DNA from: Escherichia coli
GTDB taxonomy: Bacteria > Pseudomonadota > Gammaproteobacteria > Enterobacterales > Enterobacteriaceae
DNA: 64,000 nucleotides
NCBI RefSeq assembly: GCF_024298765.1
Contig: NZ_CP101210.1
Strand: one strand, 5' to 3'
The notes under the pieces: generated by a model
The model's input: only the letters and a program-made list of their open reading frames with translations
Database searches by the model: none
What the model was told of the DNA's origin: nothing
In this document: piece by piece, positions 20,683 through 20,859 of the stretch
Numbering within the stretch: the first letter of the stretch is position 1
Layout: the number at the start of each line of letters is the position of its first letter
Translations under genes and position numbers: made by a program

Positions 20683-20859
20683 ATGGTTCAGTGTGTTCGA
20701 CATTTTGTCTTACCGCGTCTGAAAAAAGACGCTGGCCTGCCGTTTTTCTTCCCGTTGATCACCCATTCCCAGCCCCTCAATCGAGGGGCTTTTTTTGCCC
20801 AGGCGTCAGGAGATAAAAGATGGCTAATCCGCTATATCAGAAACATATCATTTCCATAA
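20683..20859 (+). CDS. pyrL: pyrBI operon leader peptide, extended in this sequence
   Basis: [38 protein letters not shown]... preceded by GGGAGGA; reads through to 20859 because the attenuator T-run has 7 T. Confidence 0.75.
20772..20796 (+). terminator. pyrBI attenuator
   Basis: gcccctcaatcgaggggc hairpin followed by ttttttt, about 25 nt upstream of the pyrB ATG. Confidence 0.85.

Follow-up and report, generated by a model that had tools for sequence, protein, structure and literature searches.

The pyrBI operon of E. coli K-12 is preceded by an attenuator associated with a 44-aa leader peptide, PyrL (Turnbough and colleagues; Pfam family PF08052), and this attenuator serves as a textbook example of how transcription is coupled to translation. 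RNA polymerase crosses the U-rich leader rapidly when UTP is high, which lets the hairpin form and ends transcription. When UTP is low, the polymerase pauses; the ribosome on pyrL then keeps close to it and prevents the hairpin, so that pyrBI is expressed (PMC10135430; PMC5021804). For this mechanism, PMC5021804 cites Roland, Liu and Turnbough 1988. Salmonella and Citrobacter carry a homologous leader and hairpin, but their 33-aa leader stops in the hairpin loop, 8 nt before the T-run.

We analyzed a 64,000-nt stretch of E. coli DNA (hereafter the window), in which the gene order yjgH-pyrL-pyrB-pyrI-ridA is the same as in K-12 (Table 1). The promoter region, leader codons 1-38, the T-rich pause region and the terminator hairpin are identical to those of the K-12 attenuator, and the same UTP-sensitive competition between ribosome and hairpin would be expected to operate. 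In contrast, the T-run behind the hairpin is 7 nt rather than 8 nt long, the leader has 58 aa instead of 44 aa, and its stop codon lies 40 nt inside pyrB rather than 3 nt before the pyrB AUG. The pyrL, pyrB and pyrI genes are consecutive on the same strand, in agreement with the annotation of related genomes, and the same PyrB product, WP_000013046.1, is annotated in relatives with 7 T and in those with 8 T. We assigned the −10 hexamer from established knowledge of the K-12 leader, and we take AATTTG to be the putative site of UTP-sensitive reiterative transcription described in the literature on pyrBI (bioRxiv 10.1101/732214). A simple promoter scan did not call the pyrBI promoter because its −35 hexamer is weak.

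Table 1. Elements of the pyrBI attenuator locus, numbered from the first base of the window.
Feature	Position	Strand	Basis or remark
pyrBI promoter −10 hexamer TATAAT (inferred)	20652..20657	+	sequence read directly
AATTTG initially transcribed region (inferred)	20665..20670	+	sequence read directly
pyrL ribosome-binding site GGGAGGA	20673..20679	+	3 nt 5′ of ATG 20683
pyrL leader ORF, 7-T allele, 58 codons + TAA	20683..20859	+	ORF list and re-derived translation
attenuator (intrinsic terminator) hairpin, 8-bp stem including A20771-T20790, 4-nt loop	20771..20790	+	terminator scan, RNA fold
T-run of 7, polymorphic homopolymer (8 in 99% of E. coli)	20790..20796	+	read directly
pyrB ribosome-binding site AGGAG	20808..20812	+	leader ribosomes read through as ...TCA GGA GAT...
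TAA ending the 44-aa leader in 8-T genomes; out of frame in the window	20814..20816	+	ORF list
pyrB, aspartate carbamoyltransferase catalytic chain, intact, 311 aa	20820..21755	+	ORF list
TAA stop of the 7-T leader ORF, ends 40 nt into pyrB, different frame	20857..20859	+	read directly
pyrI, regulatory chain, intact, 153 aa	21768..22229	+	ORF list; annotation of relatives

The hairpin core gcccctcaatcgaggggc at 20772-20789, with the arms gcccctc and gaggggc around the loop aatc, is followed by 7 T and then gccc; gcccaggcgtcaggagataaaagATGgct lies directly 3′ of the T-run, which ends 23 nt before the pyrB ATG. A20771 is able to pair with T20790 according to both the terminator scan and the RNA fold, and the folded hairpin (ΔG −15.9 kcal/mol, z = −3.7) has 6 GC pairs in its 8-bp stem. 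Like canonical intrinsic terminators, the attenuator thus combines a GC-rich 8-bp stem and a 4-nt loop with a run of 7 U; this U-tract is at the lower edge for such terminators, and the pyrBI attenuators of other species have 8-9 U. An Rfam scan of 20000-21500 returned only the Hrs1 sRNA on the minus strand (20725-20796), far below threshold (22 bits against a gathering score of 56.4, E = 0.18); we rejected it as a credible sRNA since the match is the attenuator hairpin and an A-run read on the opposite strand.

A sequence-only reading of the window had drawn attention to the 7 T behind the hairpin and had proposed that the leader frame changes after ...GAFF and continues to a stop at 20859, overlapping the pyrB start. 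Direct reading of the T-run and the re-derived 58-aa translation agree with both points. The ORF list gives this frame as 20617..20859, starting from an upstream TTG; counted from ATG 20683, the product shares residues 1-38 with the 44-aa PyrL, differs from it in a 20-residue tail, and is encoded by an ORF that overlaps pyrB by 40 nt in another frame. Its distal part (...GCC CAG GCG TCA GGA GAT AAA AGA TGG CTA...) crosses the pyrB Shine-Dalgarno sequence and AUG. When the leader was rebuilt with 8 T, we obtained a 44-aa peptide ending in ...FFCPGVRR with a stop codon 3 nt 5′ of the pyrB ATG, just as the same reading had stated for PyrL with its AFFCPGVRR end; in the window, this ending is found in the +1 frame, in the ORF 20679..20816. 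The Pfam PyrBI_leader model PF08052 matches residues 1-39 of the 58 (E = 7.6e-29, 99.9 bits, cut-off 25). Together with this match, the position 5′ of pyrB-pyrI and the terminator and T-run inside the leader ORF, some 20-25 nt before pyrB, are as in the PyrL family, while a T-run of 8-9 and a 44-aa product ending before the pyrB AUG, both typical of the family, are absent. These two absences are allelic departures and not grounds for excluding the locus from the family.

For comparison with other E. coli pyrL sequences, we determined the allele frequencies of the T-run. The 177-nt region was found in 5424 of 5426 complete RefSeq E. coli genomes. Short allele queries of 74-76 nt, for which only exact matches reach the ≥99% identity band, matched 5358 complete genomes. 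The 8-T allele is present in 5306 of these, MG1655 among them, the 7-T allele in 16 and a 9-T allele in 6; the 8 T stated for the reference is correct. The 7-T and 8-T alleles differ by a single homopolymer base, to which a more-than-chance test is inapplicable, and the question becomes one of variant versus error. Among 80 Enterobacterales species representatives found via PyrB, the T-run was identifiable in all except three Yersinia, and it measures 8 in 42 species, 9 in 34 and 7 in only one of the 77, Cedecea colo, where it stands behind a stronger stem. A run of 7 T is thus uncommon in E. coli and in the Enterobacterales at large. The exact 7-T pattern had no match in a collection of metagenome contigs, which is uninformative at a 7-T frequency of 0.3%; a length-tolerant pattern found at least 120 copies there, and among the matches listed all have 8 T except one with 9 T.

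Longer runs also occur. The 9-T genomes are 2014C-3338, HE_50, HE_100, HE_100-10, J6 and NCTC11476, three of which are related laboratory-evolved strains, and their allele predicts a leader of 48 aa that stops 8 nt inside pyrB. Public data also contain a 10-T allele, which encodes a 59-aa leader (...GAFFFAQASG...).

The 7-T allele is concentrated among the closest relatives of the window. A 25-kb query retrieved a tight clade of 69 genomes at least 99% identical to the window. Among the 60 closest complete genomes, 11 carry 7 T (MSHS 133, CT282, CT265, 14EC020, STLEFF_47, G12, HCM-28C-2, D10, CT30, EC31 and EC12), compared with 5 of the ~5300 others (Fisher p = 5.5e-19), which corresponds to a ~240-fold enrichment in this clade. 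Strain 14EC020 belongs to ST117 (PMC6206212; PMC12279825), and thus the clade of the window represents the ST117 lineage; the 14EC020 assembly is a hybrid of Illumina HiSeq and PacBio reads (PMC6206212). The 7-T isolates come from different laboratories, from human, poultry, dog and wastewater samples, and from six countries or territories, among them Canada, China, Hong Kong, Viet Nam and South Korea, besides unknown sources. A twelfth 7-T genome, APEC E12049 (O78:H4, South Korea), has ST117-type alleles upstream of the locus. It shares the bdcR, bdcA and yjgH alleles of the clade but has 12 SNPs in 3.4 kb, and its ridA and mgtA alleles downstream differ, which suggests a recombination breakpoint near pyrBI in this strain.

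Many genomes of the ST117 clade have 8 T, and we compared both groups of relatives around the locus. Over 16-43 kb, no more than 3-7 SNPs separate the relatives from the window, and 7-T and 8-T relatives have the same sequence from the promoter to the end of the hairpin. A derived SNP, 16086A, is common to 14EC020, MSHS 133, CT282, G12 and HCM-28C-2, all five of which have 7 T, whereas the five sampled 8-T relatives (13P477T, 20Ec-P-124, 2009C-3133, APEC E14033 and E371) all have 16086C and carry private or shared SNPs of their own, such as 10977T. The pattern of 16086 against the T-run needs no homoplasy and fits a single change from 8 T to 7 T followed by descent; the SNP phylogeny, built from 16-50 kb around the locus with 0-5 informative sites, is compatible with a single origin and cannot prove one. 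Over 43.5 kb, the window differs from the 8-T relative 13P477T by 4 SNPs and the T-run indel only. As no further indel occurs over this distance, the assembly of the window is not indel-noisy.

Copies of the allele are also found outside the complete genomes. In a collection of 15 billion proteins, at least 1000 contigs, most of them short, encode exactly this 58-aa product, which is listed under the name 'pyr operon leader peptide [Escherichia coli]' with NCBI, ENA, Logan and UniRef (A0A447X8R0) as sources. It is present in 1671 index blocks, and in 1399 of these the longest carrying contig is below 50 kb, indicating draft assemblies of the short-read type. The 44-aa form is present in 11305 index blocks, with ~27 contigs per block read. 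On these figures, the 58-aa variant accounts very roughly for 0.5%, consistent with the 0.3% among complete genomes. The allele has already been deposited many times, and the locus is the known E. coli pyrBI attenuator rather than a new system; a search of the literature found no publication on a 7-T pyrL allele. RefSeq (PGAP) labels pyrL a frameshifted pseudogene in all of the 7-T genomes fetched.

Further 7-T loci differ in how far they can be trusted. A Shigella flexneri lineage (Logan SRR22404925 and SRR060018; GCA_000213475.2) combines, in short-read assemblies, 7 T with linked C-to-T changes that create GCC TAG, a stop two codons after the T-run. Its leader of 39 aa therefore ends 5′ of the ribosome-binding site of pyrB, and another C-to-T change is present at two of the three loci. 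This is a second heritable 7-T allele, in which the early stop could reflect either compensation or drift. In contrast, NCTC 86 (Escherich's strain) has 7 T in OZ489144.2 but 8 T with an intact pyrL in CP019778 and LT601384, and LR217818 of the same strain matches with the same single one-base gap, that is, with 8 T. The 7 T of OZ489144.2 reflects an error of assembly or a variant of the culture, and the discordance shows that singleton 7-T calls are unreliable. Ten further 7-T loci from long contigs represent ten different haplotypes; some may have arisen by independent slippage and some may be errors.

Taken together, the locus is probably the classical UTP-sensitive pyrBI attenuator with a genuine, vertically inherited one-base deletion in its T-run (8 T to 7 T), characteristic of part of ST117 and with a small or near-neutral effect. 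The sequence-only reading had left the choice between a homopolymer sequencing error and a real variant open; the clustering in ST117, the hybrid assembly and the short-contig copies favor a real, inherited variant, which is the most likely status of the allele. If the true sequence had 8 T and encoded the normal 44-aa leader, the 7 T would be an error of sequencing or assembly. A one-base difference in a homopolymer is the classic long-read error, PGAP marks the gene as frameshifted, one assembly of NCTC 86 stands against three others, and the scatter of ten long-contig loci over ten haplotypes is what isolated errors would produce. However, such errors would hardly accumulate in the clade of the window, in genomes from independent laboratories and platforms with an Illumina hybrid assembly among them, leave the 16086A subclade uniformly 7 T among the sampled genomes, spare the rest of the 43.5 kb from indels, or recur abundantly on short, draft-type contigs. 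In a rough Bayesian estimate, ~18% of clade members are truly 7 T against ~0.1% sporadic 7 T elsewhere, so a 7-T call in a clade member such as the window is almost certainly real, and we regard an error here as very improbable. We give even less credence to the T-run being a hypermutable contingency tract whose 7, 8, 9 and 10 T states interchange reversibly to tune pyrBI expression. Alleles of 7, 9 and 10 T do exist, 7 T appears on many haplotype backgrounds and both 7 T and 8 T within ST117, and 9 T is found in a set of laboratory-evolved strains. On the other hand, 99% of the genomes have exactly 8 T, the sampled ST117 data fit one change with no reversal, at least some of the sporadic cases are assembly discordances, and eight bases are short for such a tract.

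We classified the leader ends of the 80 species representatives by an analysis anchored on the motifs MVQ.../LPRL/PFFF. In Citrobacter, Salmonella, Enterobacter, Leclercia, Raoultella, Buttiauxella and Cedecea, a leader with a 33-34-aa core stops inside the hairpin, 8 nt before the T-run. In E. coli, E. albertii and a few Citrobacter, Raoultella and Pluralibacter, the leader ends in ...FFCPGVRR with its stop 5-6 nt before pyrB. In ~10 species, including Kosakonia, Pseudocitrobacter, Phytobacter, several Enterobacter and others, it ends in ...FFAQ(A/S)SGD(N/K)HG with its stop 5 nt inside pyrB. Two outliers are Phytobacter massiliensis, whose leader runs 143 nt into pyrB, and Pluralibacter gergoviae, whose leader ORF shares the frame of pyrB, uninterrupted by a stop codon.

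The ~10-species class reads the pyrB ribosome-binding region in the exact frame of the E. coli 7-T allele (A-Q-A-S-G-D). In Kosakonia, Pseudocitrobacter, Phytobacter and some Enterobacter, the frame behind the T-run is GCN-CAG-NCG-TCA-GGA-GAT (A-Q-x-S-G-D) as in the window, and the leader likewise ends inside pyrB. Unlike the window, these leaders have 8 or 9 T, a spacer between Shine-Dalgarno and ATG that is 1 nt shorter, and a stop at the TAA over pyrB codons 2-3 (+5) rather than at +40. The window and the representative of E. coli sensu stricto have one extra base between Shine-Dalgarno and ATG (GATAAAAGATG versus GATAAACATG), with 23 nt versus 22 nt from the end of the T-run to the ATG, and it is this base that makes the E. 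coli 7-T frame miss the TAA at pyrB codons 2-3 and run on to +40. Across these classes the tail of the leader and the position of its stop are evolutionarily free, which argues that a longer leader matters little, while the length of the T-run is tightly held.

In the window, transcription from the pyrBI promoter would proceed through the T-rich leader. With UTP plentiful, RNA polymerase would outrun the ribosome on pyrL, the hairpin would form and transcription would stop in the U-tract; with UTP scarce, the polymerase would pause, the ribosome would catch up, the hairpin would be blocked and pyrBI would be transcribed. Everything through the hairpin is unchanged in the 7-T allele. As the frame changes only after the hairpin, the competition between ribosome and hairpin should be unaffected and the switch should still work. 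The stop of the Salmonella and Citrobacter leaders within the loop shows that the mechanism can do without the part of the E. coli ORF that differs in the 7-T allele. The sequence-only reading had expected a real variant to change both the U-tract and the coupling of transcription to translation. The U-tract is indeed shortened, but an altered coupling is not supported as it was put, because the codons whose translation blocks the hairpin are the same.

The U-tract has 7 U in place of 8; should A20771 pair with the first U, these numbers become 6 and 7. The canonical length is given as 7-9 nt in PMC3993855. A d'Aubenton-Carafa-type tail score falls from 5.75 with 8 T to 5.40 with 7 T, a 6% drop, and the terminator scan still calls the 7-T attenuator hairpin. 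From these values we infer that the loss of termination efficiency is at most small, and basal expression would be predicted to be slightly higher. In addition, ribosomes on the leader would pass over the Shine-Dalgarno sequence and AUG of pyrB before they terminate 40 nt inside the gene, and initiation at pyrB may be modestly perturbed: such ribosomes could hinder initiation, or could help it by unfolding the site. We judge any regulatory effect to be small or near neutral, and the 7-T allele is most likely a near-neutral polymorphism that marks a lineage within ST117.

A real allele might nevertheless be functionally important, with a leaky attenuator, higher basal pyrBI expression and a narrower range of regulation, with reduced or decoupled PyrB translation, or with both, so that pyrimidine control in ST117 would be measurably altered. 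In 76 of 77 species the T-run measures 8 or 9, which favors a constraint on its length. This suggests that shorter runs are selected against and that the effect of 7 T may be more than negligible. The wild-type stop 3 nt before the pyrB AUG suits translational coupling, a geometry that is lost with 7 T, and the early stop of the Shigella flexneri allele, which restores a short leader, could be a compensation. However, within ST117 the allele has been maintained and has spread across countries while the PyrB and PyrI proteins stayed unchanged (same accessions), the tail score is only 6% lower, 7 U is within the canonical range, and ~10 species naturally translate their leader through the pyrB ribosome-binding site in the 7-T frame. 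We consider a measurable effect unlikely, and we retain it at a modest probability mainly because the T-run is so tightly held at 8-9. An adaptive version is more doubtful still: it is quite improbable that 7 T was selected in poultry-associated and extraintestinal ST117 by raising basal aspartate transcarbamoylase and uncoupling PyrB translation from leader termination, and that the T-run more generally serves natural E. coli and Shigella as a mutable means of tuning their pyrimidine supply.

As a near-neutral lineage marker, the 7-T allele would keep the attenuation switch while it moves the leader stop and trims the U-tract. It thereby offers a ready-made isogenic test of what the eighth U contributes to termination and of whether a leader stop next to the pyrB start makes a difference. 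For genome curators, a 'frameshifted pyrL' in ST117 should not be taken as an assembly defect, while isolated 7-T calls in other lineages deserve suspicion. Beyond its value for curation and for such a test, it is an ordinary strain-level polymorphism.

Several other differences among the ST117-clade genomes were noted around the locus. A 'frameshifted' yjgL was considered as a marker of the 7-T subclade and dropped, as 8-T relatives have it as well and only the naming differs: yjgL (~16050-17780) is annotated as frameshifted in every fetched clade genome that spans it, whether 7 T or 8 T, and CT30 has, in addition, an 18-nt insertion at window position 17160. The source strain of the window carries private G-to-A changes at 11983 (valS), 23044 (mgtA) and 42389 (ytfQ); the first two positions are G in 13 of 13 covering relatives and the third in 8 of 8. 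At the left flank of the window, next to a tRNA-Leu gene, an island encoding an integrase and a phosphoethanolamine transferase (131-1892) is matched only by CT30 among nine spanning relatives. The other eight have a different island, encoding an HNH endonuclease and a restriction endonuclease for phosphorothioated DNA, and both islands occur with 7-T genomes. Two insertion sequences found in relatives are absent from the window: ISVsa5 (IS4-like), which disrupts mgtA in MSHS 133 (28859-30067 of the fetched locus), and IS2 between yjgN and yjgM in D10 (17339-18567 of the fetched locus).
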